Of a stretch of DNA of 64,000 nt, positions 32,624-51,294 are shown piece by piece. Both the position numbers and the translations under genes were made by a program. Numbering within the stretch: position 1 is the stretch's first letter; each line of letters starts with the position of its first letter. Source of the DNA: an uncultured Candidatus Saccharibacteria bacterium (GTDB taxonomy: Bacteria; Patescibacteriota; Minisyncoccia; Phycocordibacterales; UBA2100); the NCBI GenBank assembly GCA_964399865.1, contig CAYNRJ010000002.1, positions 22,151 through 86,150 on the forward strand, in the 5' to 3' direction. The notes under the pieces were generated by a model that saw only the letters and a list, made by a program, of their open reading frames with translations, did not search any database and had not been told where the DNA came from.

Positions 32624-33679
32624 ATGAACGGGGCGTACTTAAAGGGGAAAACAGTGCTCGTGACCGGTGGAACGGGGACTTTTGGCTACGCATTCGTAAA
32701 GAGACTCCTAGAAACACAGGTTAAAAAGGTCATTATTTTCAGCCGCGATGAATTCAAGCAGCTTCATCTCCGCCGGGCTTTTAATGACAATGATCGTCTC
32801 CGCTTTTTCCTAGGGGACGTGCGAGATAAAGAGCGACTCACGCGCGCATTCAGCGACGTCGACATAGTAGTGCACGCAGCAGCCTTGAAACAGGTGCCTG
32901 CGCTTGAATACAATCCGACCGAAGCGATCAAGACGAATGTGCTCGGTACCCAAAATGTGATCGAAGCAGCCCTCGACGCGGGTGTAGAGAGAGTCCTCGT
33001 CATTTCATCCGACAAAGCAGTGCATCCAGTAAATTTGTATGGAGCAACGAAGCTCTGCGCAGAAAAGATAACAGTTCCTGCAAATATCTATCGCCGCAGT
33101 GGAGAGACGAAGCCACGCTTCTCTGTCATGCGATACGGCAACATTCTCGGCAGCCGAGGTTCGTTCCTTGAGCTCATAGAAAAACAGCGCGAAACTGGCG
33201 TGATCCCTCTTACCGACGAGCGCATGACGCGCTTTTGGCTTCGCATCGAGCAAGTAATGGAATACGTACTTGAAGCGCTCGATACCATGCACGGCGGCGA
33301 GATTTTCGTACCGAAAATGGAGAGTTTGAAAGTCGTTGATGTTGCAAAGTACCTTGCGCCTGAATGCGAGATTAAAGTCGTCGGGATCCGTCCTGGTGAG
33401 AAACTCCACGAGATGCTTGTGACGGAGCATGAGGCAAAACGCACGTACGACATAGGCAACATGTACGCGATTCTTCCTGAGCAGATACAGTTTGATAATG
33501 AGCAGACACTCAAGGGAAAATTGGTTCCTCCAAATTTCACGTACGTCAGTGATGAAAATCTTTTCCTCCGAACGATCAAAGATGCTCCTCGAATCGTCTC
33601 GGGCATCTCAGCCACACCTCTCAAAGCCGCTCCGCGCCAGAGCGCAAAGAAAGGCCGAAGGGTAGGTGCAAGGCGATAA
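32624..33679 (+). CDS. pseB: UDP-N-acetylglucosamine 4,6-dehydratase (inverting), PseB/FlaA1/CapD family
   Basis: KTVLVTGGTGTFG N-terminus, YGATK catalytic motif, about 350 aa. Adjacent to a DegT aminotransferase gene. Confidence 0.8.
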   Translation: MNGAYLKGKTVLVTGGTGTFGYAFVKRLLETQVKKVIIFSRDEFKQLHLRRAFNDNDRLRFFLGDVRDKERLTRAFSDVDIVVHAAALKQVPALEYNPTEAIKTNVLGTQNVIEAALDAGVERVLVISSDKAVHPVNLYGATKLCAEKITVPANIYRRSGETKPRFSVMRYGNILGSRGSFLELIEKQRETGVIPLTDERMTRFWLRIEQVMEYVLEALDTMHGGEIFVPKMESLKVVDVAKYLAPECEIKVVGIRPGEKLHEMLVTEHEAKRTYDIGNMYAILPEQIQFDNEQTLKGKLVPPNFTYVSDENLFLRTIKDAPRIVSGISATPLKAAPRQSAKKGRRVGARR

Positions 33680-34808
33680 GCTTGTGATCCCGTATTCAAG
33701 ACAAAACATCACTCCCGCTGACATCAAGGCGGTCGTTAAGGTTTTAAAATCGGACTTTATAACACAGGGTCCGAGTATCCTCGCTTTTGAGAAAGCGCTT
33801 GCTCGTACCGCGGGAGTACAACATGCAGTCGCATACTCTTCTGGAACCGCAGCACTGCACGGTGCATATTTCGCGGCGGGAATCGGAGAGGGTGACGAAG
33901 TGATTGTGCCTGCGCTTACGTTCGCTGCAACAGCGAACGCAGTCCTTTACGTTGGCGCCAAACCAGTATTTGCTGACATTGATCCTGAGACAGGCAATAT
34001 TGACCCGAAGGATGTGGAAAAGAAAATCACCGAGCGCACGAAAGCGATTGTTGCTGTCGACTATGCAGGTCGTCCTGCGGATATTGAAGAAATCGCGGAG
34101 ATCGCGCGAAAACACAAACTACTTTTCATTGAAGACGCGGCGCACTCTCTTGGTGCGACGTACAAAGGAAAGTCGGTCGGCGCACAGGCGGACATGACGA
34201 TGTTTAGTTTCCATCCCGTTAAATCCATAACGACAGGCGAGGGCGGCGCGATTGTGACAAATAGCGAGACGTTTTTCAAAAAGCTTGTGGCATTTAGGAC
34301 ACATGGCATTGTGAAAGACAAAACGCTTTTCAAAAAGAATGATGCGCCAGCTTGGCATCAGGAAATGCAGATGCTTGGGTTTAATTACCGACTCACCGAT
34401 ATGCAGGCAGCCCTTGGACTCTCTCAAATGAAGAATCTAAAAAAGAATGTAGCGAAGCGACGCTCGCTTGCGAAGCGCTACCACGCGCTTCTTAAAGATA
34501 CTCTCGGCGTCACACGTCCGCTTCCTGAGAGCGCGTATGAGACTTCCGCATGGCACTTGTATCCGATACGAGTTCCCGCGAACTCGCGCAACGAAATATT
34601 TGACGCACTTCGGAAAGCGCAGATTGGCGTCCAAGTACATTACCCGGTGGTGTATCTCCATCCGTACTATCAGTCCCTCGGGTACACAAAGGGACTATGT
34701 CCAAACGCGGAAGCATTTTCTGATAGCGAATTATCGATACCACTCTTTCCAGGCCTTACACCCTCAGAGCAGAACAAAATTGTCCGCGAACTGCGCAAGG
34801 TCGTGTAA
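33666..34808 (+). CDS. pseC: DegT/DnrJ/EryC1-family PLP aminotransferase (PseC-like)
   Basis: IPYSRQ N-terminus. ...SFHPVKSITTGEGG places the PLP-lysine context in SFHPVK. Confidence 0.8.
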   Translation: MQGDKLVIPYSRQNITPADIKAVVKVLKSDFITQGPSILAFEKALARTAGVQHAVAYSSGTAALHGAYFAAGIGEGDEVIVPALTFAATANAVLYVGAKPVFADIDPETGNIDPKDVEKKITERTKAIVAVDYAGRPADIEEIAEIARKHKLLFIEDAAHSLGATYKGKSVGAQADMTMFSFHPVKSITTGEGGAIVTNSETFFKKLVAFRTHGIVKDKTLFKKNDAPAWHQEMQMLGFNYRLTDMQAALGLSQMKNLKKNVAKRRSLAKRYHALLKDTLGVTRPLPESAYETSAWHLYPIRVPANSRNEIFDALRKAQIGVQVHYPVVYLHPYYQSLGYTKGLCPNAEAFSDSELSIPLFPGLTPSEQNKIVRELRKVV

Positions 34809-34826
34809 GGGTGTATCATCCGTCTC

Positions 34827-35585
34827 ATGATTGCCGCCATTATTCAGGCGCGAATGGGTTCGACTCGCCTCCCTGGGAAGATCATGCTTCCCCTCGCAGG
34901 AAGATCGGTTTTGTCTCATGTCGTTGAACGCGTGAAGCGTGTGAAGGGGATTGATACGATTATCGTGGCGACGACGACTCTGCCGGAAGATGATGCGCTA
35001 GAAGCATTTTGCCACGCGGAGGGCTACGCATGTTTTAGAGGTTCCGCAGATGACGTACTCTCTCGCTACTATGAAGCCGCAAGAACAGTTGGAGCGACGG
35101 GCATTATTCGTATTACGAGTGATTGTCCACTTATTGATCCAGATACTATTGAACGCTGTATCAAACAGTACCAGAGCGGCGAGTATGATTACGTGAGCTC
35201 CTTTGTTCCGGATGAGCGGACGTTTCCTCGCGGGTTAGATACCGAGATATTTTCATTTGCTGCGCTCGAACGTGCAAATTCTTCTGCGAAAGAAAAATAT
35301 GAGCGCGAGCACGTGACGCCATACATATGGGAAAATAAGAAAGGGGAATTCAACATAGGTCCGATGTTGAGGGCAATGCCGCCGTATGATCGCGCCGATG
35401 TGCGGCTGACACTCGATTATCCAGAGGACTATGAATTATTGAAGCAGCTGTATGATCGTTTTTATGTTAAAGAAAAACTGGTAAGCGTTCCCGAAGTTCT
35501 CAAGTATCTAAGTGAGCATCCCGAAATTCCTGCTATAAATGCATTTCGAGAGGCTGAATATCCTAAACAAGGAATAAGAGTATGA
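34827..35585 (+). CDS. Acylneuraminate/pseudaminate cytidylyltransferase (NeuA/PseF/SpsF family)
   Basis: MIAAIIQARMGSTRLPGK N-terminal CTP-transferase motif. Confidence 0.7.
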   Translation: MIAAIIQARMGSTRLPGKIMLPLAGRSVLSHVVERVKRVKGIDTIIVATTTLPEDDALEAFCHAEGYACFRGSADDVLSRYYEAARTVGATGIIRITSDCPLIDPDTIERCIKQYQSGEYDYVSSFVPDERTFPRGLDTEIFSFAALERANSSAKEKYEREHVTPYIWENKKGEFNIGPMLRAMPPYDRADVRLTLDYPEDYELLKQLYDRFYVKEKLVSVPEVLKYLSEHPEIPAINAFREAEYPKQGIRV

Positions 35586-36193
35586 GTATCGCTATCGTCG
35601 ATTATGGAATGGGAAATACGGGCTCTGTTAAGAGCGCACTCAAGCTTCTTGGCGCTGAAGGGGTGATCACCGCAAAGCCAGAAGATTTTAAGCGTGCTTC
35701 ACACATTATTCTTCCGGGAGTCGGGGCGTTTCCTGATGGCATGAAGCGTGTAAAGGCATGCGAGGGATTCGAGGCTCTTGAGAAAGAAGTTCTCGAAAAT
35801 AAAAAACCTTTCTTAGGCATCTGTCTTGGCATGCAACTACTTGGCGAGTACGGAGAAGAAGCGGGCGGCGCGAAAGGGCTTGGATGGATACCGGGGAACG
35901 TGCGGCGCTTAAAAGTCGATGAGGCAAAGTTTAGACTTCCACACATAGGGTGGAATGAAGTCTCGTTCACGGGAGAGTGCCCGCTCTTTACGGGAGTAGT
36001 TCAAAAAGATTTTTATTTTGTCCATTCATATGTACTTGAGCCGACGGACGCGAGCACAATAAAAGGTACCTGTACATACGGTGAGACATTCCCTGTGGTC
36101 GTCCAGAAGGAAAATATATTCGGCACGCAATTCCATCCAGAGAAAAGTCAGAAGAGTGGGATTACTGTTCTTAAGAATTTCATCTCCCTCTAA
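35582..36193 (+). CDS. Glutamine amidotransferase, HisH paralog (WbuY/PseA-type, acetamidino-forming system)
   Basis: IAIVDYGMGN...GICLGMQLL (catalytic Cys)...FGTQFHPEKS. It is a glycan-locus paralog, not the histidine-operon gene. Confidence 0.85.
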   Translation: MSIAIVDYGMGNTGSVKSALKLLGAEGVITAKPEDFKRASHIILPGVGAFPDGMKRVKACEGFEALEKEVLENKKPFLGICLGMQLLGEYGEEAGGAKGLGWIPGNVRRLKVDEAKFRLPHIGWNEVSFTGECPLFTGVVQKDFYFVHSYVLEPTDASTIKGTCTYGETFPVVVQKENIFGTQFHPEKSQKSGITVLKNFISL

Positions 36194-36195
36194 AC

Positions 36196-36945
36196 ATGCT
36201 TAAAATACGCGTTATACCTGCTCTCACTGTGAAGGATGCAAAGCTCGTGAAGAGCGTGCAGTTCCAAAACCACCGCAACATCGGCAACTACGTCGCCGCA
36301 GTACGCGTCTTTAATGCGCGCGATGTCGATGAGCTTATTTTTCTAGATCTCGACGCGCACGAAAAAGGAATCGAAACGTGGCTGCTCGAGGAAGTTACCA
36401 AGGAATGCTTTATGCCCGTCACAATAGGAGGCGGCGTGAAGACGATTGATGAAGTGCAGACACTGCTTTCACTCGGAGCGGATAAAGTGTCGGTAAATAG
36501 TGAAGCCATACGTCGGCCTGCGTTTATCACGGAAATTGCAGAGCGGTACGGAAGTCAGTGCGCTGTTGTATCTATTGATGTGAAAAAGATAGAAAAAGGA
36601 TGGGAGGTTTTTTATGATGGCGGGACTCACGCAGCAGGACTCGACGTAATAGAGTGGGCGAAAGAGGTAGAGAAACACGGCGCAGGAGAGATACTTCTCC
36701 ACTCGATTGATAGAGACGGCGTAATGGAGGGATATGATCTCGATCTCATTCGAAATGTCGCAGGTGCGGTTCGGATACCCGTTGTCGCGCTCGGTGGGGC
36801 CGGAAAAGTGTCGGATTGTGTTGAGGCGGTACGTGCCGGCGCGTCAGCGATAGCTGCCGCGAGTATTTTTCAATACACGGAGACCACGCCCCAGATAATA
36901 AAACAAGCACTCTCAGAGGCTGGCTTTCCGGCTCGAGTTCGGTAA
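36196..36945 (+). CDS. Cyclase subunit, HisF paralog (WbuZ-type)
   Basis: RVIPALTVKD...HisF-like (beta/alpha)8 motifs. Immediately downstream of the HisH paralog. Confidence 0.85.
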   Translation: MLKIRVIPALTVKDAKLVKSVQFQNHRNIGNYVAAVRVFNARDVDELIFLDLDAHEKGIETWLLEEVTKECFMPVTIGGGVKTIDEVQTLLSLGADKVSVNSEAIRRPAFITEIAERYGSQCAVVSIDVKKIEKGWEVFYDGGTHAAGLDVIEWAKEVEKHGAGEILLHSIDRDGVMEGYDLDLIRNVAGAVRIPVVALGGAGKVSDCVEAVRAGASAIAAASIFQYTETTPQIIKQALSEAGFPARVR

Positions 36946-36955
36946 GATTGGCGGA

Positions 36956-37609
36956 ATGAGTTCGGCAAAAAAGGACACAAAGCAGATATCGGAGTGGGCG
37001 GGAGACATGGGCAAGCTCTACACCGATCGTAATCCGCAGTCGGTAGAAGAATTCGACCGTGTGTACCTAAAGGACTACAACGCGACGCGCACCTCGATGA
37101 ATGAGGAGTTCCTCAGTGATCTTCCAAAGAACCTCAAGATGCTCGAGGTTGGCTCAAACGTTGGACTGCAACTCGAATTTCTTCGCCGCATGGGTTTTAC
37201 GGGAGCGGAGGGAATTGAAATTAATGAATATGCGGTCGCACAGGCAAAGAAGATAAATCCCGAGGTCCGTGTTACTCACGGCTCAGGCTTCGACATTCCT
37301 TTCAAAGATGGGGAGTTCGATCTTGTGTTTACTTCTGGCGTCCTCATCCATATTTCGCCAAACGATATCAAGGACATTATTTCCGAGATGTACCGAGTAT
37401 CAAACCGCTACATCTGGGGCTTTGAATACTACGCACCAAAGTACACAGAGGTAACATATCGCGGGAGCAAAGACCTTCTGTGGAAGACTGACTTCTGCGC
37501 ATTGTTCCAGGAAACATTCCCAGATCTCGTTGTTGTAAAAGAGAAAAAGTATCCGATGACTGATGGCGTGAATGCGAGCCAGATGTATCTACTTGAGAAG
37601 CGCTCATAA
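36956..37609 (+). CDS. Small SAM-dependent methyltransferase (pseudaminic-acid-biosynthesis-associated methylase-like)
   Basis: LEVGSNVGLQL motif I; about 217 aa. Sits among the Pse genes. Confidence 0.55.
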   Translation: MSSAKKDTKQISEWAGDMGKLYTDRNPQSVEEFDRVYLKDYNATRTSMNEEFLSDLPKNLKMLEVGSNVGLQLEFLRRMGFTGAEGIEINEYAVAQAKKINPEVRVTHGSGFDIPFKDGEFDLVFTSGVLIHISPNDIKDIISEMYRVSNRYIWGFEYYAPKYTEVTYRGSKDLLWKTDFCALFQETFPDLVVVKEKKYPMTDGVNASQMYLLEKRS

Positions 37610-37612
37610 ACC

Positions 37613-38758
37613 ATGTTCCGCTATTGCACTCGCTGTGTGATGCCAAATACAAAGCCGGACCTCTCGTTCGACGAGTCCGGAGTGTGTGATGCATGTTCAT
37701 CTGCGGCAGTGAAGAAAGAAATAGACTGGAAAGCGCGTGAAGCAGAATTTCGTGAGCTTGTAGCGAAATTCAAGAATAAAAGTTGTTCAAACTATGACTG
37801 TGTGATCCCGGTTTCCGGCGGAAAAGATAGTCACTACCAGGCGTACATGGCGCGTCAGTACGGCCTAAATCCACTTCTGGTCAATTTTGAAGCGACGCTC
37901 CGTAATGATTTAGGCAGGAAGAATTTTGAGAACATTCGTCAGTTTGGCGACATGATCGAATTCAAAAAGAATCCTGAGGTGTACAAAAAGATGTGCCTCG
38001 AAGCGTTTCGCCGCGTCGGGGATCACGAATGGCCAAATCATATTGGCATATTCACATTTCCCATCCGTGCGGCGGTGCATTTCGGTATTCCGCTTGTTAT
38101 TTGGGGCGAGAATTCGCAGCTTGAATACGGGGGTCCAAAAGCGGCGCGCATGAAGAATGTTCTCGATAGAAGATGGCTCGAGGAATTCGGCGGTCTTCTA
38201 GGACTTCGCGTCGACGATATGGTCGGCGTCGAAGGTATCACGAATGAAGACCTTGTTTCGTACCGATATCCGACCGACGATGAATTAAAGAAGGCAGGAA
38301 TATTCGGCGCATTCCTCGGCTATTACTTTAAGTGGGACGCGATACCGCAGACGGAATTGATGAAGCAGCACGGCTTTTCAATAAAGGAAGATGGTCCAGT
38401 TGAGGGAACATACACGAACTACGAAAATCTCGACGATGCGATCGTCGCTATCCATGACTACCTCAAGTTTGTGAAATTTGCCTTCGGTCGCGCAACCGAT
38501 CACGCGTGCATCGATGTTCGAAATGGCCGACTCACTCGCGATGAGGCAGTCGCGCTCGTAACAAAACACGACGGCAAATGGCCGAAAATTGCAGTCAAAG
38601 CATTTATTGAATTCTTCAATATATCGCTCGACGAATTCAATAGGGTAGTCGATTCGTTTACGAACAAAGCACTATTTGAAGTGAACCCTGACGGTTCATT
38701 TAAGCGCGATTCAGATGGCAGTCTCATAAAGAAATATAGAGACTACTCTGTCTCGTAA
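37613..38758 (+). CDS. N-acetyl sugar amidotransferase (WbuX/WbpG family, PP-loop ATP pyrophosphatase)
   Basis: Cys-rich N-terminus CTRCVMPNTKPD...CDAC. SGGKDS PP-loop. Co-located with the HisH/HisF paralogs. Confidence 0.75.
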   Translation: MFRYCTRCVMPNTKPDLSFDESGVCDACSSAAVKKEIDWKAREAEFRELVAKFKNKSCSNYDCVIPVSGGKDSHYQAYMARQYGLNPLLVNFEATLRNDLGRKNFENIRQFGDMIEFKKNPEVYKKMCLEAFRRVGDHEWPNHIGIFTFPIRAAVHFGIPLVIWGENSQLEYGGPKAARMKNVLDRRWLEEFGGLLGLRVDDMVGVEGITNEDLVSYRYPTDDELKKAGIFGAFLGYYFKWDAIPQTELMKQHGFSIKEDGPVEGTYTNYENLDDAIVAIHDYLKFVKFAFGRATDHACIDVRNGRLTRDEAVALVTKHDGKWPKIAVKAFIEFFNISLDEFNRVVDSFTNKALFEVNPDGSFKRDSDGSLIKKYRDYSVS

Positions 38759-38759
38759 T

Positions 38760-39443
38760 ATGCGCGCTTCATTCATCATTCGTGCCTACAATTCTGCAGA
38801 AGTACTGCCTCGCGCAATTGAAAGTGCTCTTGCTCAAGATTTTCCGAAAAATGACTACGAAATCGTGGTCGTTGATGATGGGTCGATCGACACAACATTC
38901 GCTGTCGCGAGTAAGTTCGCCGAGGATACGCGTGTACGCATTGTGAGACAAGAGAATAAGGGAATTATTGAGGCGGGTATGGCCGGGATCCGTGCAGCAG
39001 AAGGCGAGATATTTATATTTCTTGATGCGGATGATGAATCAATGCCAAGCGCGCTGTCGAATTTTGTCGCGGCACTTTCTAATCCGGAAGTCGACTATGC
39101 GTACGGTCACTATTTTGAGGAATACGAAGGGAATCGAAAGCTAGTCGAACCAACTGATCCTTTTAAAGCTCCAGCAGGTGCCTTCGCGTGGAGGAAGAAA
39201 CTCGTGGTGGAAGAAGGTGGTTTTTTTGGTGTCTCTATGTTCCCCGAATATGAAATGCTGCTAAAAACTTCAGACACGTGGAAAGGAAAACTCATAGCCG
39301 AGCCGGTGTTTATCTACCATAGGAGCAAGGGGAGTCTCACGGGAGACCCTGCCCGAGTTGATAGTGAAATCGATAAGCTCAGAAAACGGTATCCTGACAA
39401 GGCGGAGATGATTGGACAAATACGAAATTATATGCTCTCGTAG
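38760..39443 (+). CDS. Glycosyltransferase family 2
   Basis: FIIRAYNSA...VVDDGSIDTT...LDADD. Confidence 0.7.
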   Translation: MRASFIIRAYNSAEVLPRAIESALAQDFPKNDYEIVVVDDGSIDTTFAVASKFAEDTRVRIVRQENKGIIEAGMAGIRAAEGEIFIFLDADDESMPSALSNFVAALSNPEVDYAYGHYFEEYEGNRKLVEPTDPFKAPAGAFAWRKKLVVEEGGFFGVSMFPEYEMLLKTSDTWKGKLIAEPVFIYHRSKGSLTGDPARVDSEIDKLRKRYPDKAEMIGQIRNYMLS

Positions 39444-39450
39444 AGAGTAT

Positions 39451-40128
39451 ATGGGCTCTAAAGTCATCGCTGTAGCTGCCATTAGACCTTGGAATATCAA
39501 GGAATTTAAGGCCTGGAAGGCCCCAAAAGGCTATAAGAAGGTCCTTATCCAGAATCCGAAGGAGCTGACCCTTACAAGGCTCAAAAAGCTCAATCCCCGC
39601 TACGTTTTCTTCCCTCATTGGTCGTGGATCATCCCAAAAGAGGTACATGAAAACTTCGAATGCGTACTATTTCACATGACCGACCTTCCGTTCGGCCGCG
39701 GCGGGAGCCCAATGCAAAATCTGATCGCGCGCGGAATATACAAAACAAAAGTGTCTGCGATTCGCGTTGCGGAGGGACTCGATACGGGTGATGTGTACCT
39801 TAAACATCCGTTCAATATAAAAGAAGGAAGTGCGGAAGAGCTCTTCGGAAAACTTTCCAAGATCATTTTCAAAATGATGAGCGATATCCTCCGGCTTGAA
39901 CCAAAACCAATTCCACAAAAAGGGAAACCGGTTATTTTCAAACGCCGAAATTCAGCAGAAAGTGAGATTCCCGCAGATGTACATGGAAGAAAACTCTACG
40001 ATTTTATTCGCATGCTTGATGCGCCGGAATATCCGGCCGCGTTCATCAAAAATGGCTCTGGGCGGATCATCCTTCGTCGCGCTAGAATGAGAGGGAAGAC
40101 AGTGACCGCAGATGCTGAATTCGAATAA
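39451..40128 (+). CDS. Formyltransferase-fold protein (Fmt/PurN-like N-terminal domain)
   Basis: FHMTDLPFGRGGSPMQNLIARG matches the H-x-SLLP-x-xRG formyltransferase motif. Confidence 0.6.
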   Translation: MGSKVIAVAAIRPWNIKEFKAWKAPKGYKKVLIQNPKELTLTRLKKLNPRYVFFPHWSWIIPKEVHENFECVLFHMTDLPFGRGGSPMQNLIARGIYKTKVSAIRVAEGLDTGDVYLKHPFNIKEGSAEELFGKLSKIIFKMMSDILRLEPKPIPQKGKPVIFKRRNSAESEIPADVHGRKLYDFIRMLDAPEYPAAFIKNGSGRIILRRARMRGKTVTADAEFE

Positions 40129-40138
40129 ATTTCTAACT

Positions 40139-40828
40139 ATGAAGAACAAAACATCCGTACTTGTAATTGCCGCTCATCCTGACGATGAGGTTTTAGGTTG
40201 TGGTGGCGCTATCGCGCGGCATATCGAAGAGGGAGATTCCGTAACCGTCGTCATTCTTGGTGAAGGAATCGCATCTCGCGCAGGTACGCCCGAGTCAACA
40301 GTGAAAAAGCTCCAGGAGGCGCTCTATAAAGATGCGCACAAAGCAAATACTATTCTTGGGGTAAAGGATCTTATTTTGAAAGGGCTTCCCGACAATCAGT
40401 TCGACAGCGTCCCGCTTCTTTCCGTCGTTCACGAGATAGAGTCCGTGATCCATGAGGTGAATCCGACCGTGATCTATACGCATCATGGAAGTGATACGAA
40501 TGTAGATCACCGTGTTGTCTCTGAAGCTGTTGCTGCGGCTGTGAGACCAATGCCGGATAATGCCATAGAAGAAGTGCGCGCGTTCGAAGTTCCCTCCTCA
40601 AGCGAGTGGAATTTTACGAGACCGCTTTTTAGACCGCAGGTATTCGTAGCTCTTACTGAAAAGCAGTTGAAAAAGAAAATTACAGCAATGAATGCATACA
40701 AGTCGGAAGTTCGCGCATTCCCACACCCACGCTCGCCGGAATATCTAGAATCTCTTGCTCGAGTACGCGGTGGACAATCGGGTACAAATGCAGCGGAAGC
40801 GTTCGAGCTTGTATATAGAAGGATATGA
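40139..40828 (+). CDS. PIG-L/LmbE-family N-deacetylase
   Basis: VLVIAAHPDDEVLGCGG metal-binding motif. Confidence 0.75.
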   Translation: MKNKTSVLVIAAHPDDEVLGCGGAIARHIEEGDSVTVVILGEGIASRAGTPESTVKKLQEALYKDAHKANTILGVKDLILKGLPDNQFDSVPLLSVVHEIESVIHEVNPTVIYTHHGSDTNVDHRVVSEAVAAAVRPMPDNAIEEVRAFEVPSSSEWNFTRPLFRPQVFVALTEKQLKKKITAMNAYKSEVRAFPHPRSPEYLESLARVRGGQSGTNAAEAFELVYRRI

Positions 40829-41463
40829 AGATCACGATACTAGTCGATACTCCGCAGAGTTGGATAGTCCCATACGCGCAAACACTCGAATCAAACCTTC
40901 ATTCGCTGGGGCACGATGCCTCATTGGTGCACGCAGCAAATAAAATAGAGTCAGGCGACATCGCCTTTTTCCTCTCGTGCGAGCGAATTATCCCTGTTTC
41001 CATTTTGAGAAAGAACAAACACAATCTTGTTGTACACGAAAGCGCTCTTCCTAAGGGAAAAGGATGGTCGCCGATGACGTGGCAAGTCCTCGAAGGTAAG
41101 AGGAAGATCCCGGTCACACTCTTTGAGGCAGCAGAGTCCGTTGATAGCGGAGTTATTTACGCACAAAACTCAATAGCGCTTACGGGTAGCGAATTGGTTG
41201 ACGAGCTTCGCGAGAAGCAGGGGAAAGCGACAATTGCCCTCGCCCTTTCGTTTGTTCGCAAGTATCCAGTAATTCGCGGCAAGAAACAAAGCGGGAGGGC
41301 TACGTTTTATCCTCGAAGAAAACCGAAGGACAGTGAGCTTGATCCAAATAAAACAATCGCGGAGCAGTTCGATCTTCTTCGTGTCGTCGATAACGAACGA
41401 TATCCGGCATTTTTCAAATATCGCGGGCACGAGTATGTGCTGAAGATTTCCAAAAGAAAGTAA
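40825..41463 (+). CDS. Formyltransferase-fold protein, second copy
   Basis: VVHESALPKGKGWSPMTW matches the formyltransferase core motif. Confidence 0.55.
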   Translation: MKITILVDTPQSWIVPYAQTLESNLHSLGHDASLVHAANKIESGDIAFFLSCERIIPVSILRKNKHNLVVHESALPKGKGWSPMTWQVLEGKRKIPVTLFEAAESVDSGVIYAQNSIALTGSELVDELREKQGKATIALALSFVRKYPVIRGKKQSGRATFYPRRKPKDSELDPNKTIAEQFDLLRVVDNERYPAFFKYRGHEYVLKISKRK

Positions 41464-41464
41464 T

Positions 41465-42544
41465 ATGAAAACTCCTGCAATCACCATAGGGAAAAGAAAG
41501 GTGGGGCCCGGGCACCCATGTTTTGTGATCGCGGAAGTTTCTGCAAATCACCATCAGAAATACGAGGAAGCTGAGGCAATTATTCGCGCGGCAAAAGAAG
41601 CGGGAGCAGATGCGGTAAAGCTCCAAACATATACGCCTGATACGATGACGATTGATTCAGATAAAAAATGGTTCTTCTTGGGGGGAAAAGACACACCGGA
41701 ATCTTGGAAGAAAACCAATCTCTACAAACTCTACGGCACCGCATACACACCCTGGGAATGGCAGCCGAAATTGAAGAAGTTTGCAGAAAGCCTTGGTCTT
41801 ATATTCTTCTCGACACCCTTTGATGCGACGGCGGTGGATTTTCTAGATAAGATGAAAGTACCTTGTTACAAGATCGCCTCCTACGAAGCGACGGATATTC
41901 CGCTCCTCAAGAAAATCGCTTCAACAAAAAAGCCCGTCATCATGTCAATAGGCTTTGCTGAGCTCTCTGAGGTCAAGGACTCTATGAAAGCGCTTCGCGG
42001 TGCAGGAGCAAAAGAAATCGCAGTCCTCCACTGCGTGACCGCATACTCCGGAGATCCAAAACCCGAGTTTATGAATTTAAATACTATCCAAGATATCGCT
42101 AAGCGTTTCAATGTAGTAAGCGGATTTTCAGATAACAATGCGGGTATCGAGGCGCCTATCGCGGCGGTGTATGCGGGCGCATCAATAGTGGAGAAGCATG
42201 TGACGCTTGATAGAAAGCTTGGCGGACCTGATGCGCGATTTTCTATAGAACCACAGGAACTAGCGGAGATGGTGCGTGGAATTAGGCGTGCTGAAAGCGC
42301 ACTTGGGAAAGTCCAATACGGTCCTGTAAACGAAGACGAGAAGAATTATAAAAATCTGCGCAGATCTCTTTTTGCCGTCGCAGATATACAGAAGGGCGAG
42401 AAATTTACGGCAAAGAACACACGAGTTATCCGCCCGGCATACGGTCTTCCGCCCAAAGAGTACGATAGAGTTATCGGGAAGCGCGCTGCTCGTAGTATAG
42501 AGCGAGGGGAGCCGCTTACCAAGAAAGACATTACACGCTCATGA
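41465..42544 (+). CDS. pseI: Nonulosonic acid synthase (NeuB/PseI/LegI family; PEP-condensing TIM barrel plus C-terminal SAF domain)
   Basis: ...CFVIAEVSANH...KLQTY.. N-terminus, and C-terminal ...GEKFT..N.RVIRP SAF-domain motif. The pseI symbol rests only on adjacency to pseB and pseC. Confidence 0.75.
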   Translation: MKTPAITIGKRKVGPGHPCFVIAEVSANHHQKYEEAEAIIRAAKEAGADAVKLQTYTPDTMTIDSDKKWFFLGGKDTPESWKKTNLYKLYGTAYTPWEWQPKLKKFAESLGLIFFSTPFDATAVDFLDKMKVPCYKIASYEATDIPLLKKIASTKKPVIMSIGFAELSEVKDSMKALRGAGAKEIAVLHCVTAYSGDPKPEFMNLNTIQDIAKRFNVVSGFSDNNAGIEAPIAAVYAGASIVEKHVTLDRKLGGPDARFSIEPQELAEMVRGIRRAESALGKVQYGPVNEDEKNYKNLRRSLFAVADIQKGEKFTAKNTRVIRPAYGLPPKEYDRVIGKRAARSIERGEPLTKKDITRS

Positions 42545-44328
42545 CATTTTCCACTCTCAAACGATTCTTTAAAGCATTCCGGCGATACCGGCTTCATATC
42601 GCTATTTTGATAGTCCTCGGTTTCCTTGGCGGGATTCTCGAGGGCGTTGGCATCAGCGCCATCATTCCATTATTTGCGCTCCTTGCAGGTGAAGGTACAG
42701 GTGAATTAAACGCAATCTCCAAGATTATCGTGGGTGCTTTCGATTATTTTCCGTTCCCTTATTCCGCGGAGTCACTTCTCATCATGGTCGTCGTCTTTTT
42801 CGCGCTACGCGCGGTCGTCATGGTCACGTTTAATTACCTACGCGCACGAGTAGGCGCGAGCTTTATGGTGCGTACCATGAACGAAGTTTTGGAAAAAGTA
42901 TTGCGGGCTGAGTGGGGGTATCTCTTGAAGCAACGGCTTGGCTATGCGGAAACGATATTCCTTCGCGATATTCGTCAGGCGTCCGCGTTGCTTGAATCAG
43001 TAAGTCAGGCAGTTCTGGTGTTCACGAACCTCATCATTTATGTCGTTCTTGCCTTCTATATATCGGCTCCAATTACCCTTATTACAACAGTAGCGGGGGC
43101 CGTACTGCTTCTCTTCCTGCAGCCGGTTCGAACGATGACTCGTAAAATTGCTGATGTTGCCTCTACGGCAGAAAAGGGGATGGCTCATTTCATCAGTGAG
43201 CACGTCCTTGGTGTAAAAACAGTCAAAGCAACAGGGACTGAATATGCGGTGTTTAAAAAGGGAACAGGCTTCTTCGATACGCTTAAACGAGTTCTTATCA
43301 GAAGTTCGTTCGTACAATCTGCTGGTAGTGCGGTCGTGCAGCCGCTCGCTCTCATCTTTATCGCCTCCGTCTTTCTCTATTTCCACAATGTAAACGCGGC
43401 AAACCTCGGCGCGTTCCTAGTCCTGGTCTACCTGATCCAAAAAATATTCGTGTACGTCGAAGCAGGGCAGAGCACGCTCCACGCTGTGTACGAAAAATTG
43501 CCGTATGCGACCGCGCTCCTTTCGTTCCGAGACGATTTGGTTGCGCATCAAGAGAAATCATCTGGCACGGAACCATTCTCGTTCTCCTCTGATTTATCGT
43601 TCAAGAATGTTGGATTTGCATACGAAAGTGGCGCGGCAGTCCTGACAAATGTTGATTTCACTGTGCGAAAGGGCGAAATGGTTGGACTCATTGGGCCCTC
43701 GGGTGCAGGGAAAACGTCTGTTGCGGATCTTATTCTTCGTTTCTTTACAGCTACGAATGGCAGTGTCGAGCTCGATGGCGTTCCCGTCGGACAGTTCAAT
43801 CTGAGTGAATGGCGACACAAGGTGGGTTACGTATCTCAAGATCAATTCCTCCTATCGGATACGGTGAAAAATAATATTCGATTCTATGATGACTCTGTGT
43901 CTGATGAGGCGATCGAGCGAGCGCTAAAAATGGCACACTGCAAAGAATTCATAGATAAACTTCCAGAAGGCATCGATACTCTGGTAGGTGAGCGCGGAGT
44001 GCGCCTCTCAGCTGGTCAGCGTCAGCGCATCATGCTCGCGCGCGTTCTAGCGAGAGAGCCGGCGATGCTCATTCTCGATGAAGCAACGAGCGCACTCGAC
44101 AATGAATCCGAGAAGCATGTGCAGCAGGCGATCGATGACCTTCGAGGAAAGGTCACGATGTTCATAATTGCACATCGATTATCGACCGTGACGCACGTCG
44201 ACAACATTCTTGTCCTCAAGGACGGAAAAATTGCTGAGAGTGGATCTCCAGAGAAACTACTCGCTGATACAAATTCGTACTTCTACAAAATGCATCACAT
44301 AAAAGGTGGCGCGGATCTTCTTACCTAA
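42541..44328 (+). CDS. ABC transporter, fused permease and ATPase (MsbA/exporter type)
   Basis: Six N-terminal TM helices. Walker A GPSGAGKTS, signature LSAGQRQR, Walker B ILDEATSALD, H-loop IAHRLST. Confidence 0.85.
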   Translation: MTFSTLKRFFKAFRRYRLHIAILIVLGFLGGILEGVGISAIIPLFALLAGEGTGELNAISKIIVGAFDYFPFPYSAESLLIMVVVFFALRAVVMVTFNYLRARVGASFMVRTMNEVLEKVLRAEWGYLLKQRLGYAETIFLRDIRQASALLESVSQAVLVFTNLIIYVVLAFYISAPITLITTVAGAVLLLFLQPVRTMTRKIADVASTAEKGMAHFISEHVLGVKTVKATGTEYAVFKKGTGFFDTLKRVLIRSSFVQSAGSAVVQPLALIFIASVFLYFHNVNAANLGAFLVLVYLIQKIFVYVEAGQSTLHAVYEKLPYATALLSFRDDLVAHQEKSSGTEPFSFSSDLSFKNVGFAYESGAAVLTNVDFTVRKGEMVGLIGPSGAGKTSVADLILRFFTATNGSVELDGVPVGQFNLSEWRHKVGYVSQDQFLLSDTVKNNIRFYDDSVSDEAIERALKMAHCKEFIDKLPEGIDTLVGERGVRLSAGQRQRIMLARVLAREPAMLILDEATSALDNESEKHVQQAIDDLRGKVTMFIIAHRLSTVTHVDNILVLKDGKIAESGSPEKLLADTNSYFYKMHHIKGGADLLT

Positions 44329-45615: not shown

Positions 45616-46131
45616 TTAAAGGCTGAGAAATTCTGTAAGTTTCTCAATGCCTTGCTCGATACTGACTTCGTTTGTCTTTATTGTTATCTCGGGATTAATC
45701 GGTTTTTCGTATGGATTTTTATCACTCATGCCGATGAGGTCGTCTTTCTCACCCGCTTTCGCTTTTGCATAGAGTCCTTTTGTATCGCGTGCGATACAGA
45801 CTTCGAGGGGGCAATCGATAAAGACTTCAATGTAGCCTTCCCCGATTATTTGTCTTGATCGTGCTCTATCTTCCAAGAAAGGTGAGATGACGGAAACAAG
45901 TACGAAATCATTCGAGGCAGCTTTTTCTTTCGCATATTCTGCAATGAGTCGGTTGTTCTCGCGAATATCGTCGCGAGAGAATCCGTGTTTGTGTCCGTGC
46001 ATCTTTCGCACTTCGTCGCCATCGAGCAAGTAGGCTGACTTTTCGATTTTCTTCAAGGTAGTGTGGAGAGCGTTTGCAAGCGTTGATTTGCCTGAGCCGC
46101 TTAAACCTGTGAACCACAACACTTTTCCCAT
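45616..46131 (-). CDS. cysC: Adenylyl-sulfate (APS) kinase
   Basis: VLWFTGLSGSGKSTLA P-loop; about 171 aa. Immediately downstream of the sulfurylase fusion gene. Confidence 0.85.
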   Translation of the reverse strand: MGKVLWFTGLSGSGKSTLANALHTTLKKIEKSAYLLDGDEVRKMHGHKHGFSRDDIRENNRLIAEYAKEKAASNDFVLVSVISPFLEDRARSRQIIGEGYIEVFIDCPLEVCIARDTKGLYAKAKAGEKDDLIGMSDKNPYEKPINPEITIKTNEVSIEQGIEKLTEFLSL

Positions 46132-46134
46132 GGA

Positions 46135-48393
46135 TTATTCTACAAACACTTTCTTCCCTTTTTTAATCAAGTCGAGAATTAGCTCTGAAATCTCAGGTCG
46201 CATGAACCACTCCGGAAGCTTTTTGCCCGAAAGGAGAGTCTTTCTCGCTTCAGTTCCGCTGATGTGTAGCTTTTCACCCTCGTTGTGTTTGGAGGTGTCG
46301 TCAGCTTCATGCACGTGCCTACGCTCCTTCTCTGAATAAAAAACGTGATTGAACTTTACCGGTACAATTCCAAGATCTGGGAATTTCTCGAAGATATCGT
46401 GAGATGCGGTCGGGGCGTAGAAATTACCTACGCCAGTGTGATCGCGGCCGATAATAAAATGACTGCATCCAAAATTCTGCCGACAGATCGCAGTAAACAA
46501 TGCCTCGCGCGGACCAGCGTAGCGAGAGAACGTCGCGTATGTACCAAATACGGCACTGTGTTTACGATAAAACTGCTTCATCATAAGCGCGTATGATGCG
46601 ACAATCGTCTCCGCTTCAAAGTCACCTTTTTTCTTCTTTCCAACAATAGGATGAATAAAAAGTCCATCAGCAAAGGATCGGCGTAGGGCCTCGAGTTGGA
46701 TAAACTCGTGTCCCCTGTGTATTGCGTTTCGTGTATGGAAGGCAACTATCTTTGCCCAGCCGCGATCAACGAAGAGTCGGCGAGATTGTCTTGGGGTAAG
46801 TTCGTAGCGTTTTGTTGGAGAATCAAAACGTTTGAGAAGAGTTATTTTTCCAGCAAGAAAGAGTGGCTTCATTGTTAGCGCTTCGGCGACACCGGGGTGA
46901 GCTGGGTCTTTCGTACCGTACATTTTCTGAACGAATTTTTCCCTGTCGTACGTATATTTTTCTTTGAGATGAAGTATGCCGACCGTCTCTCCTTTTTTAT
47001 TCGTAAGAGCCACGTCCTGCTTTAGTTTCATTTTCTTTGCTTCCTCCTCACTGGCATCCAAAACAATCGGCATAGGCCAAATGACGCCGTTTGCGAGCCG
47101 CATGCGAGAAAGCACAGATTCAAGGTCTTTTTTACCAAGGAATCCTTCAAGTGGACTGAACGTGCCGATCGCGATCTGTTCGATATCCATGTGCTGTTCG
47201 TCGGTAATCTGAAGAGTATGCAATCCCTTCTTTGGAGTGTAGGAAGAATCCGCTACCCTATCGACGAGAACGCCGCCATTTGGCTCTACCAACGCTGATT
47301 CACTACTTCCGGAGAGCAGGTAGTCGCCTGTATCAAGCTGTTTTACATACGGAAGACCAACTGGGCGAACTTTCGCAGGGACGAATCTTTCCGCCTGGTC
47401 AATCAGTTTATTGATCGTTGTAATAACTTCGATCGGGTATTTGCCTATAGCGGTTTCCGCTGCGAGCGTGAGTCCATATGCACCATCAAGAATTGTTTGG
47501 ATAACATCGTGTACTTCCGCTCGAGTCGGATTCTTCTTTTGTACCATTGATTCGAGCAGGTTCGTCGCAACGAAGACACCTTTTTTCTTTTTACGCGCTC
47601 TGTCCATGACGATCTTTTGTGTGAAAGGTATGCGCTCGATCGGGACCTCACGGCTCAAGTCTCCGCGGTCTATGAGGAGGAAATCAGACTTATCGATGAT
47701 CTTATCTAGAGATTCGAGTGCTTCGACGCATTCGATCTTGGAAATTATTTTCATGCGATTCTTCGACACCTTACGGACGAGGTCGACTGTTTCCGGGGAA
47801 CGAACAAACGACACAGCGATATGCTCGACCCCTTCCTTAAGAGCGATCTGTATCGCTTCAAGGTCTTTCGGCGAAAGGGCAGGGAGGTCGTATTTCTTCT
47901 TTGAAGCAGAATCGATGACGACACCCTTATTCATTCCCATCTGACCGCCTGTGATCGCTGACGCGACTACATAACCGTTTGTCTTGAGTGGCGAAATATC
48001 CAGCACCCGAAACACCAGCGAGTCGAAATCTACATAGATAAGGTCGCCTTCCTCCAATTGCGTAACGATATTCCCCGGTCGAAGCGACATGCGAGTTTTA
48101 TCTCCCACTATCTCTTCTTTATAAATATTGACGATATCGCCCTCTTCAATCGAGACTTCTCGATTTGCTATTGCGCCATTACGAACCTGAGAGCCTTCAG
48201 TGTCGAGAATGAATGGAACGCCGACCTCGCGTGCCATTTTCATAAAACGTCGCTGGTCTTCTATGCTCGAGTGCGACATATTTACACGCACGAAATCGAC
48301 TCCGCGGTCTTTAAGCATTCGCAGGCTCTCCTCTGTGTTAGTGGAGGGTCCGAGCGTGACGACTATCTTTGTTTTTGTAGAATGTTTCCCCAT
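46135..48393 (-). CDS. sat: Fusion protein: N-terminal pyruvate kinase catalytic domains (about 370 aa, no C-terminal regulatory domain) joined to a full-length C-terminal sulfate adenylyltransferase (ATP sulfurylase)
   Basis: PK motifs KTKIVVTLGP, VNMSHS, KIISKIEC (catalytic Lys context), IDRGDLSREVP, ATNLLESM, AAETAIGKYP. The Sat part has the N-terminal PUA-like domain (...GTFSPLEGFLGKKD...VIWPMPIVLD) and the QTRN/HRAH-type motif FHTRNAIHRGHEF, plus GRDHTGVG. Confidence 0.8.
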   Translation of the reverse strand: MGKHSTKTKIVVTLGPSTNTEESLRMLKDRGVDFVRVNMSHSSIEDQRRFMKMAREVGVPFILDTEGSQVRNGAIANREVSIEEGDIVNIYKEEIVGDKTRMSLRPGNIVTQLEEGDLIYVDFDSLVFRVLDISPLKTNGYVVASAITGGQMGMNKGVVIDSASKKKYDLPALSPKDLEAIQIALKEGVEHIAVSFVRSPETVDLVRKVSKNRMKIISKIECVEALESLDKIIDKSDFLLIDRGDLSREVPIERIPFTQKIVMDRARKKKKGVFVATNLLESMVQKKNPTRAEVHDVIQTILDGAYGLTLAAETAIGKYPIEVITTINKLIDQAERFVPAKVRPVGLPYVKQLDTGDYLLSGSSESALVEPNGGVLVDRVADSSYTPKKGLHTLQITDEQHMDIEQIAIGTFSPLEGFLGKKDLESVLSRMRLANGVIWPMPIVLDASEEEAKKMKLKQDVALTNKKGETVGILHLKEKYTYDREKFVQKMYGTKDPAHPGVAEALTMKPLFLAGKITLLKRFDSPTKRYELTPRQSRRLFVDRGWAKIVAFHTRNAIHRGHEFIQLEALRRSFADGLFIHPIVGKKKKGDFEAETIVASYALMMKQFYRKHSAVFGTYATFSRYAGPREALFTAICRQNFGCSHFIIGRDHTGVGNFYAPTASHDIFEKFPDLGIVPVKFNHVFYSEKERRHVHEADDTSKHNEGEKLHISGTEARKTLLSGKKLPEWFMRPEISELILDLIKKGKKVFVE

Positions 48394-49927: not shown

Positions 49928-51294
49928 CCATATTCATTGCTATTTACGATAGTTTGCTTGCGAATAGTATTCTTCGTACGGATGTTGTGCCCACGCTTCT
50001 TGAGAGAAATAAGGATTTACGAGTAGTCGTACTTGCGGATAAAAGTCGCGTCGAAGAATATAAAAAAATATTTAATACGGACCGGGTCGTGGTTGAAGGA
50101 GTCGACGTGAATCCAATGTCGAATTTTGAAAGACGATGGGCGTCTTTCATTTGGCACACTGTTTCAAGCGCGACTCTTACAATTCAATTATACGGAGGCC
50201 CGCTTTCACCGAGGAGGAATTTTTTGAACCGCACTGCAACATACGCGCTTCGATTTATTTTTGGGAATGTCGTTGGGAGAGCGCTTCTACGAACGATCGA
50301 TTTTCATCTGTTTCGCACCGAGCCGTATGCAACATTGTTCGAGACGTATAAACCAACCGCAGTTTTTGCAGCAAACGTCTATGCGCCATTAGATACAGAA
50401 GTGATCCGTGAAGCTAAGCGACGTGCTATTCCTACTATCGGTATGGTGAAGAGTTGGGACAATGTGACCTCGCGCGGTCTTATACGAGCGCTCCCTGATG
50501 AATGCATTTCGCAATCCTATCTTGTGAGAGAGCAATTACATGCATTCGCCGATCTGCCACTTGAAAAAACTACTGTCTCTGGCGTTCCGCAGTATGATAT
50601 TTACTTTAGGCCTGACGATGAAGAGAGGGTTTCATTCTGGAAACGTTTCGGTATCGATGGGACACGCAAAGTTATTCTATTCCTAGAGCCAGGTCTCAAA
50701 TTATCGCCGCATGGTTATGAGGTATGGCAGATGCTCGACACCTATATTGAGAATAAAGGCACGGAAGAGCCGGTAGAAGCATTCATAAGTGTTCATCCTG
50801 CGTATCCGTATAACACGGAGGCTGCGGAAAAATTGAAACACGCAAAGATCGTTCGTTTTGGATACCAATTGAAAGGAGGCGCGCATAAAACATGGGAATT
50901 CTCCAAAGATGCGTACGCTGACCTTATGCGAGTCGTGCGCTACTGTGACTTAGTTATCACGACTGCTTCCACCATGAACATCGAGAGTTCCATATTTGAT
51001 AAGCCGGTCATTAATATTGCATTTGATGGAACAAAGAAACTTCCATATAACGAATCCGTTCGACAATACTACGATTATTCGCACCTTCTTCCGATCGTTC
51101 AATCCGGCGGAGTGAAGGTTGCCTACTCGAAGGAGGAATTGTTTGAGAACATTGACCTTTTACTCAAGCATCCAGAGTGGGGAAGAGAGGGTAGAAGAAA
51201 AATAGTCGAAGAACAATGCGTCTATATCGACGGGAGGTCTGCCGAAAGAATTGCGACCGCTATCCTTGCTTTTATGAGCCGCAGAGCGCAATAA
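49924..51294 (+). CDS. Hypothetical GT-B-like protein, paralogous in architecture to the preceding ORF
   Basis: ISVHPAYP block. ATGA-type overlap with the upstream gene. Located directly upstream of a CMP-sugar synthetase gene. Confidence 0.35.
   Translation: MTIFIAIYDSLLANSILRTDVVPTLLERNKDLRVVVLADKSRVEEYKKIFNTDRVVVEGVDVNPMSNFERRWASFIWHTVSSATLTIQLYGGPLSPRRNFLNRTATYALRFIFGNVVGRALLRTIDFHLFRTEPYATLFETYKPTAVFAANVYAPLDTEVIREAKRRAIPTIGMVKSWDNVTSRGLIRALPDECISQSYLVREQLHAFADLPLEKTTVSGVPQYDIYFRPDDEERVSFWKRFGIDGTRKVILFLEPGLKLSPHGYEVWQMLDTYIENKGTEEPVEAFISVHPAYPYNTEAAEKLKHAKIVRFGYQLKGGAHKTWEFSKDAYADLMRVVRYCDLVITTASTMNIESSIFDKPVINIAFDGTKKLPYNESVRQYYDYSHLLPIVQSGGVKVAYSKEELFENIDLLLKHPEWGREGRRKIVEEQCVYIDGRSAERIATAILAFMSRRAQ

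Follow-up and report, generated by a model that had tools for sequence, protein, structure and literature searches.

How can an operon that encodes the dehydratase, the aminotransferase and the synthase of pseudaminic acid (Pse) biosynthesis, and nothing recognizable as PseG or PseH, yield an activated sugar? The question is posed by the genes at positions 32624–42544 of a 64-kb stretch of contig CAYNRJ010000002.1 (here called the window, by which the whole 64 kb analysed is meant). The canonical route of Campylobacter jejuni and Helicobacter pylori runs through PseB, PseC, PseH, PseG, PseI and PseF, and its logic appears to be shared here: a 2,4-diamino-2,4,6-trideoxy-L-altrose derived from UDP-N-acetylglucosamine (UDP-GlcNAc) is condensed with phosphoenolpyruvate and then activated with CMP. 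The analysis points to a known pathway in a new variant form, a Pse route in which two standard enzymes appear to have been swapped for unrelated proteins. The operon is probably functional, with appreciable room for doubt, and would produce a CMP-activated, N-tailored Pse, keeping the PseB/PseC/PseI core and replacing two of the six canonical enzymes. A more specific proposal, which we advance tentatively and at a little under even confidence, is that in the Patescibacteria PseG has been displaced by a small water-using GT-A protein and PseH by a 1ZGH-type acyltransferase of the formyltransferase (Fmt) fold, in what may be called a GT2-Fmt-PseI pathway, and that a 1ZGH-family/PIG-L pair forms an N5 acyl-editing unit that deacetylates N5 and leaves it free or re-formylates it. 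The assignments that go beyond homology are those we infer from synteny, gene fusion and co-occurrence.

The module comprises 12 co-directional open reading frames (ORFs) on the forward strand, all intact. Because the intergenic distances range only from −17 to +18 nt, it is a single operon and not a chance grouping. Families were typed by NCBIfam bit scores against curated equivalog cut-offs, complemented with Pfam, as follows.

32624–33679 (+): PseB, inverting UDP-GlcNAc 4,6-dehydratase/5-epimerase (TIGR03589, 425 bits; cut-off 407.75)
33666–34808 (+): PseC, UDP-4-amino-4,6-dideoxy-beta-L-AltNAc aminotransferase (TIGR03588, 481.5; cut-off 423.5)
34827–35585 (+): SpsF-like CTP_transf_3 cytidylyltransferase, presumed CMP-Pse synthetase and PseF analogue (PF02348, E=7e-34)
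35582–36193 (+): HisH-type, WbuY-like glutaminase (TIGR01855, 239 bits; GICLGMQ cysteine motif and HPEKS motif)
36196–36945 (+): WbuZ/HisF2-type ammonia-channel subunit (TIGR03572, 299.8; cut-off 299.7; HisF model below its cut-off)
36956–37609 (+): pseudaminic acid biosynthesis-associated methyltransferase (TIGR03587, 188.5; cut-off 112)
37613–38758 (+): WbuX/PseA-family PP-loop N-acetyl sugar amidotransferase (TIGR03573, 367.5; cut-off 203)
38760–39443 (+): small soluble GT-A protein of glycosyltransferase family 2 (GT2), 227 aa, candidate PseG replacement (PF00535, E=1e-32)
39451–40128 (+): Fmt-like 1, of the 1ZGH family, partner of PIG-L (PF21553 and a weak PF00551 match; PDB 1ZGH, 237 bits)
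40112–40828 (+): PIG-L/LmbE-family de-N-acetylase (PF02585, E=1.6e-28, 100 bits; AHPDDE motif)
40825–41463 (+): Fmt-like 2, candidate N-formyl (N-acyl) transferase replacing PseH (PF00551, E=9e-11)
41465–42544 (+): PseI, pseudaminic acid synthase (TIGR03586, 424.5; cut-off 340.25)

PIG-L shares 17 nt with Fmt-like 1 and 4 nt with Fmt-like 2. Judged by its homologues and by the Pfam Formyl_trans_N match, Fmt-like 1 begins at the ATG at 39451 and encodes a protein of 225 aa; public gene calls give a truncated 150-aa ORF and an 89-aa ORF on the opposite strand (window 39412–40128; locus L001, 11767–12516). The original prediction, made from the letters and their ORFs, had named a Pse-type module with acetamidino and N-formyl tailoring genes. 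Every gene that it listed was recovered by NCBIfam and Pfam at its coordinates on the forward strand, but it had overlooked the 227-aa GT2 protein within the module, on which much of what follows turns. The same gene order is found in a contig of Candidatus Kaiserbacteria CG10_big_fil_rev_8_21_14_0_10_59_10 (PFBM01000014; locus L012), where 14 genes (a family 4 glycosyltransferase (GT4), PseB, PseC, cytidylyltransferase, HisH, WbuZ, methyltransferase, WbuX, GT2, Fmt-like 1, PIG-L, Fmt-like 2, PseI and an ABC exporter) follow one another as in the window with 45–80% amino acid identity. Every module gene is 54–80% identical between the two, and the retention of the 14-gene order argues for selection on the whole set. 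Beyond the exporter, L012 continues with Glyphos_transf-like, NeuA-like and NeuC-like genes, identity over the whole stretch being 32–80%.

The core of the module is of Pse type, matching the Pse models clearly better than those for legionaminic (Leg) or neuraminic acid enzymes, because PseB, PseC and PseI all pass their equivalog cut-offs while the Leg and Neu models fail. The LegB model gives PseB 63.5 bits against a cut-off of 475, the LegC model gives PseC 251 bits against 420, with the ArnB model also below its cut-off, and the NeuB model gives PseI 298.8 bits against 399.65. The Pse typing put forward in the original prediction is thus upheld by the profile hidden Markov models (HMMs), and neither PseB nor PseC scored better as a legionaminic or generic dTDP-sugar enzyme. 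PseB aligns with H. pylori PseB (2GN4) at 323 bits and keeps the SxDK and YxxxK (YGATK) motifs, PseC carries the SFHxxK motif of the pyridoxal-phosphate lysine as SFHPVK, and the best PDB match of PseI is C. jejuni PseI (8H2C, 253 bits). In pairwise PDB comparison, PseC scores slightly higher against ArnB than against H. pylori PseC, a non-discriminating result in place of which the curated cut-offs were used.

The comparative framework for the remaining genes was built on Fmt-like 1. A search for its relatives matched 599 stretches, of which 574 were confirmed, with one genome per species, and in 80 genome loci containing a relative (cited here by L numbers) ORFs were called and neighbours classified; the 39 loci containing PseB, PseC and PseI are termed complete. 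The largest unassigned neighbour family in the 80 loci proved to be PseG, often fused to a PseH-type GNAT, and the PseG profile was validated on a representative scoring 249 bits against TIGR03590 (cut-off 153). No PseG was detected in the whole 64-kb window by iterated profiles with hmmsearch --max, the best match being NeuC (E=0.02), and PseH-domain profiles in the same mode found no PseH or GNAT in those 64 kb. Pfam and NCBIfam annotation of most larger window ORFs likewise yielded neither a GNAT nor a PseG-type protein, and no PseH was found in the syntenic locus L012 either. The earlier remark that no PseG or PseH homologue is obvious therefore extends to profile searches of the full window. 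Unannotated ORFs of 315–360 aa in PseG-less Patescibacteria loci, which could have hidden a PseG, were mostly epimerases, GFO/IDH oxidoreductases, ATP-grasp or radical-SAM proteins. A 250-aa family, c6, with the look of a xylose-isomerase-type TIM barrel and no NCBIfam match, is confined to PseG-less Pse loci (L020, L032, L038, L056, L060 and L062), and L088 encodes at 11404–13305 a NeuB-SAF protein fused to an AP_endonuc_2 TIM-barrel domain; such TIM-barrel proteins may be another alternative synthase partner.

For the missing UDP-sugar hydrolase, the small GT2 protein is the best candidate in the window. Its orthologue family is narrow, with about 26 clusters at or above 163 bits and the next match at 89 bits, and its named members belong to Kaiserbacteria or Peribacteria (Patescibacteria). 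In 11 loci the orthologue adjoins either Fmt-like 2 or a PseH-like GNAT together with PseI, and a recognizable PseG occurs in none of the 11 GT2-bearing loci, compared with 44 of 78 other Fmt-like 1 loci (Fisher p=5e-4). Two proteins, P0127 and P0141, are GT2-GNAT fusions whose GNAT halves match the PseH-family HMM (E=3e-23 and 1e-30). The P0141 locus reads PseB, PseC, cytidylyltransferase, HisH, HisF, methyltransferase, a 403-aa protein without Pfam match that is presumed to be WbuX, the fusion and PseI, which is the window order with the fusion standing in for GT2, Fmt-like 1, PIG-L and Fmt-like 2; in canonical loci, that slot is occupied by a PseG-PseH fusion. The same neighbourhood recurs as GT2, GNAT, PseI in L086 and as GT2, Fmt-like 2, PseI in L087–L090, while L072 reads PseI, GT2, and in L085 a NeuB fragment, a DUF218 protein and a GNAT stand between the GT2/Fmt-like 2 pair and an intact PseI. 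The synthases tested in L083, L086 and L087 pass the PseI cut-off, as do the PseB and PseC of L087 theirs, and in L087–L090 each of the six genes PseB, PseC, cytidylyltransferase, GT2, Fmt-like 2 and PseI can be paired with one of the six canonical roles. The acyltransferase and PseI neighbours, the lack of PseG and the GT2-GNAT fusions mirroring PseG-PseH fusions are the grounds on which GT2 is proposed as the PseG analogue. The AlphaFold2 model of the protein (predicted local distance difference test score 95) is a compact GT-A fold, with 6P61 and SpsA as best PDB matches by Foldseek, and D40 and the D89xDD (DxD) motif are invariant in the family; the generic nature of the fold makes the Foldseek comparison uninformative as to hydrolase or transferase activity. 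GT2 enzymes are inverting, and PseG is itself an inverting hydrolase, of GT-B fold, so that hydrolysis by a GT-A protein with water as the acceptor would be chemically reasonable.

The N-acyl step can be approached in a similar manner. Fmt-like 2 is distantly similar to 1ZGH and shows a marginal similarity to PseJ (6CI2, E=0.002). Its orthologues (252–265 bits) are flanked by GT2 and PseI in the Kaiserbacteria loci L087–L090, which lack PseH and where they are the sole acyltransferase candidates. PseH is missing from 6 of 11 complete loci with Fmt-like 2 but from 4 of the 28 others (p=0.017). Fmt-like 2 thus probably replaces PseH. A third Fmt family (Fmt3), with a canonical N-x-H motif, is present in other loci and looks more PseJ-like. 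The original prediction had suggested that the missing hydrolase and N-acyl steps may fall to the Fmt-like and PIG-L proteins jointly; this is supported for the N-acyl step in the case of Fmt-like 2, but not for PIG-L as the hydrolase, a role that GT2 fits better.

The distribution of Fmt-like 1 and PIG-L points to a different kind of function. Fmt-like 1 is about 60% identical to 1ZGH over its full length. Its relatives number 7456 at E<=1e-5, and the 1ZGH family is represented in no fewer than 574 species. Of the 80 loci, which span bacteria and archaea, 73 have PIG-L beside Fmt-like 1 and 68 contain PseI. The 39 complete loci contain PIG-L in 37 cases, PseG in 27, PseH in 29 and both PseG and PseH in 22, and Clostridia add the pair to full canonical sets, as in L031 (PseB, PseC, cytidylyltransferase, PseH, PseI, Fmt-like 1, PIG-L, PseG). 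Since the pair usually coexists with genuine PseG and PseH, PIG-L and Fmt-like 1 were rejected as substitutes for either, and on this sequence distribution the two form a widespread accessory tailoring unit. PIG-L enzymes de-N-acetylate 2-acetamido sugars, and the sole acetyl group inherited from UDP-GlcNAc becomes N5 of Pse, which makes N5 the expected PIG-L target; the simplest reading of the pair's job is therefore N5 deacetylation, followed by re-acylation or by nothing. In Planctomycetota L037 and L045 the order is PseB, PseC, methyltransferase, Fmt-like 1, PIG-L, Fmt-like 2, PseI. The name methionyl-tRNA formyltransferase attached to 1ZGH is almost certainly wrong for the family, because its members are of some 225 aa, have PIG-L neighbours in Pse clusters and miss the Asn of true Fmt. 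1ZGH is a structural genomics entry from Clostridium thermocellum, and a literature search found no functional study of it.

The tailoring genes complete the picture. A PP-loop amidotransferase is encoded together with HisH- and HisF-like subunits, so that the WbuX/WbuY/WbuZ set is complete, and the trio and the accompanying methylase correspond to what the original prediction described. The WbuX translation contains the SGGKDS PP-loop and an N-terminal CxxC...CxxC. The HisF paralogue, judged from its translation, has Thr at what we take to be the catalytic Asp11 of Thermotoga maritima HisF and keeps the equivalent of Asp130, a pattern that fits an ammonia channel rather than a cyclase. High-scoring orthologues of the methylase are found in L037 and L045, there without WbuX. 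The cytidylyltransferase, which had been called NeuA-family, is indeed a cytidylyltransferase, but of SpsF/KdsB-like type: it has no match to the PseF model TIGR03584 at E<=1e-5, its matches being limited to KdsB/SpsF-like models. An SpsF-like orthologue is the only cytidylyltransferase in 21 of the 39 complete Pse loci.

A route can be proposed from these assignments. By homology, PseB and PseC would convert UDP-GlcNAc into UDP-4-amino-4,6-dideoxy-beta-L-AltNAc. Fmt-like 2, acting for the absent PseH, would acylate the 4-amine (the future N7), most likely with a formyl group from N10-formyl-tetrahydrofolate. PIG-L would then strip the inherited 2-N-acetyl group (the future N5), and Fmt-like 1 would re-acylate that position or act with the deacetylase; there is chemical precedent for this step in the Kuenenia CMP-nonulosonic acids, which bear a single free amine and a single formyl group as well as a methyl group. 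The GT-A protein, as a non-orthologous replacement of PseG, would release UDP with water as acceptor, as synteny and gene fusion suggest. PseI, again by homology, would condense the free sugar with phosphoenolpyruvate, the SpsF-like protein would presumably form the CMP-sugar, and, going by family membership, WbuX with HisH and HisF would convert a remaining N-acyl group to an amidine while the methylase adds a methyl group. The product would then probably enter a surface glycoconjugate built by the surrounding glycan island. The predicted CMP-Pse would carry some mix of N-formyl, free or re-acylated N5, amidino and methyl groups, in an exact pattern that sequence does not fix.

Several observations weigh against this reading. 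Chemically, no single molecule could undergo all the listed steps: an acetyltransferase is missing from the operon, the lone acetyl group, at N5, would be the target of both PIG-L and WbuX, and formylation of both amines would leave no acetyl group for WbuX. This suggests several products, action of WbuX on a different acyl group, or a different order of steps. GT-A proteins are normally transferases, and to our knowledge no GT-A UDP-sugar hydrolase of the Pse pathway has been described. Five loci contain both Fmt-like 2 and PseH, and in L082 Fmt-like 2 forms a fusion with a GNAT; the replacement of PseH by Fmt-like 2 would therefore be lineage-specific. The Asn-His-Asp triad of the N10-formyl-tetrahydrofolate-dependent sugar N-formyltransferases (ArnA-N, WlaRD, VioF and PseJ) is incomplete in both Fmt-like proteins. 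In the 1ZGH family, His75 and Asp111 are invariant and the canonical catalytic Asn (Asn108 of Fmt, Asn102 of ArnA) is replaced by Leu or Val; Fmt-like 2 keeps the His and the Asp, has Val in place of the canonical Asn and conserves an Asn four residues ahead of the His. Formyl transfer by either family can therefore not be taken for granted. Lastly, the active site of the synthase departs from expectation: in PseI, His245 (His236 of Neisseria meningitidis NeuB) is kept, but Asn224 aligns with NeuB His215, the two NeuB residues being what we take to be the metal-binding pair of that enzyme, and His occupies the first position in 69 of 75 aligned PseI-like proteins. The PseI variant, with the motif GFSDNN, is found in five Candidate Phyla Radiation (CPR) loci (the window, L012, L085 from Peribacteria, L086 and L089), and Asn occurs at the same position within other motifs in Patescibacteria L051 and L003. 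Because GFSDNN recurs across Kaiserbacteria and Peribacteria orthologues, Asn224 looks like a conserved variant rather than decay, and it may signal an altered metal dependence.

The alternative that best survives these considerations, unlikely as we judge it, is an ordinary Pse pathway. The PseG and PseH genes would then lie in another part of the genome, GT2 would serve the island as a conventional glycosyltransferase, and tailoring would be the sole task of the Fmt-like and PIG-L proteins. The 64 kb analysed are part of a source contig of at least 264 kb and of a larger genome, in which PseG and PseH could lie, and the island is rich in other GT2 and GT4 genes. PseG is present in at least one Patescibacteria locus (L053), and the GT2-bearing locus L089 holds a weak remote GT-B candidate in a neighbouring sub-cluster (ORF 2847–3794, hhalign probability 81%). 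In canonical loci, however, PseG and PseH almost always lie inside the cluster. The GT2 family, moreover, is narrow, always adjoins an acyltransferase and PseI, has not been seen alongside PseG and includes two fusions to a PseH-like GNAT, and in L087–L090 the six genes take up the six canonical roles one for one.

A legionaminic-type pathway, or one leading to another 5,7-diamino nonulosonic acid stereoisomer, with NeuC at 53140–54330, for instance, releasing the nucleotide, is very improbable. It draws on a NeuA-like/NeuB-like/NeuC trio 9 kb downstream, whose NeuC is the only window protein with any similarity to the PseG profile. That trio, however, has its own synthase and cytidylyltransferase and looks separate, in L087 it is matched by a complete Leg-type set encoded on the opposite strand, and the GDP-linked LegB/LegC/LegI reading of the operon itself was rejected on the HMM scores given above. 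Slighter still is the chance that the operon is decaying or non-functional, as the lost PseI metal ligand, the Asn missing from both Fmt-like proteins and a deletion of PseG and PseH might imply, given that the 12 ORFs are intact and tightly coupled, that the substitutions are family-wide across distant lineages (the 1ZGH family and the GFSDNN synthases alike), and that L012 keeps its identity to the window in every module gene.

The proposed replacement of PseG by GT2 and of PseH by Fmt-like 2, with N5 editing by the 1ZGH-family/PIG-L pair, can be set against known systems. Relative to the canonical route, to which PseB, PseC and PseI are orthologous by HMM cut-offs, the window operon lacks a GNAT PseH, a GT-B PseG and a PseF-type enzyme, having a protein of the Fmt fold, a small GT-A protein and an SpsF-like CTP_transf_3 protein in their places, and its PseI has Asn at the first metal-binding His. 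Acetamidino systems include PseA of C. jejuni, which makes Pse5Ac7Am, WbuX/WbuY/WbuZ of Escherichia coli O145, LfnA of Pseudomonas aeruginosa O12 and AglXYZ of Methanococcus. The window clusters a WbuX-family protein with HisH and HisF paralogues as the O-antigen and archaeal systems do; it differs in that the trio lies inside a Pse operon that has a deacetylase and no acetyltransferase, with a methylase between HisF and WbuX. The Fmt fold is also that of PseJ, the Pse N7-formyltransferase of Anoxybacillus kamchatkensis (PDB 6CI2–6CI5), and the enzymes of N-modification of pseudaminic acids are largely unknown (PMC11040635). PseJ is proposed to act on a 4-amino UDP-sugar to give 7-N-formyl Pse, the role assigned here to Fmt-like 2; Fmt-like 1 and 2 fall instead in a 1ZGH-like clade with its own C-terminal domain (PF21553) and without the canonical Asn. 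In Candidatus Kuenenia stuttgartiensis, CMP-nonulosonic acids with one free amine, one formyl group and an additional 14 Da have been reported and linked to a cluster with deacetylase and formyltransferase genes between the aminotransferase and a NeuB-family synthase that its authors call Leg-related (bioRxiv 10.64898/2026.04.20.719630). The likeness to the window is one of gene arrangement as described there, and the window adds the amidotransferase trio and GT2.

If this reading is right, N5 editing would explain non-acetyl N5 substituents and free-amine nonulosonic acids in hundreds of species, and the GT2-Fmt-PseI arrangement would be a previously unrecognized version of the pathway. It would supply a GT-A-fold candidate for UDP release in PseG-less genomes, an Fmt-fold replacement for PseH, and a widespread deacetylase/Fmt-like pair, one member of which has a crystal structure (1ZGH), that probably edits N5. 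Pseudaminic acids, as sugars of the cell surface, influence recognition, motility and interactions with phages or hosts, and a large island devoted to sialic-acid-like sugars in ultra-small, host-dependent CPR bacteria bears on the ways in which these adhere to their hosts or conceal themselves from them.

The host belongs to the Patescibacteria/CPR, the group that the original prediction had considered, and is Kaiserbacteria-like on the evidence of a SecA (58926–61415) that is 74–79% identical to proteins of Candidatus Kaiserbacteria, Parcubacteria and Paceibacterota; scans for rRNA, tRNA and Rfam families found nothing in the window. A complete nonulosonic acid pathway, which was thought noteworthy in a CPR organism, is not unique to this genome, many Patescibacteria metagenome-assembled genomes carrying one, and our search of open-access literature found no paper linking pseudaminic or nonulosonic acids with Patescibacteria. 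The window as a whole is a glycan island, with many GT2 and GT4 genes, epimerases, methyltransferases, a polysaccharide deacetylase, an AsnB-like protein, two PMT_2 proteins, an MBOAT and a GtrA. Besides its many glycosyltransferases, the island has sulfate activation genes and two nonulosonic acid modules, and two of its features adjoin or resemble the Pse operon.

42541–44328 (+): MsbA/PglK-like ABC exporter (PF00664 and PF00005; HepA, MsbA and PglK models below cut-offs)
48488–54330 (+): second nonulosonic acid module, with two Glyphos_transf-like proteins followed by NeuA-like, NeuB-like and NeuC genes

The exporter is translationally coupled to PseI and syntenic in L012 and in other GT2 loci, and it is a probable glycolipid flippase. 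In the second module, a NeuA/PseF-like cytidylyltransferase (51302–52006; TIGR03584, 160 bits, below the cut-off of 205.7) is followed by a NeuB-family synthase scoring below both the NeuB and the PseI cut-offs (52003–53103) and by a NeuC hydrolysing 2-epimerase (53140–54330; TIGR03568, 383, cut-off 236). One of the Glyphos_transf-like proteins has a weak match to the BFO_1060 glycosyltransferase domain, and no LegB, LegC or LegH was found near the module.

Elsewhere in the island, an adenylylsulfate (APS) kinase, a fused pyruvate-kinase-like/PUA/ATP-sulfurylase protein and a sulfatase-family protein are encoded at 45616–48393 (−) and 54703–56118 (+), which suggests sulfated glycans. Just upstream of SecA, at 56105–58420 (+), lies a Wzy_C (O-antigen ligase/PglL-like) protein with C-terminal TPR repeats, which may be the transferase that places the glycan on protein or lipid; a similar protein also follows the Pse cluster in L085, L086 and L089, with SecA or a long uncharacterized ORF next to it in L085 and L089. 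Many Pse clusters (L015, L017, L018, L026, L033–L035, L043, L083, L087–L090 and others) are accompanied by a trio of an aldo-keto reductase, an SpsF-like cytidylyltransferase and a glutamate-1-semialdehyde-aminomutase-like aminotransferase, of which the window has the cytidylyltransferase only. The left end of the window lies beyond the glycan genes and encodes, at 1008–4461 (+), a TrwB-like ATPase resembling type IV secretion system coupling proteins and a lamin-tail/PKD-domain protein.

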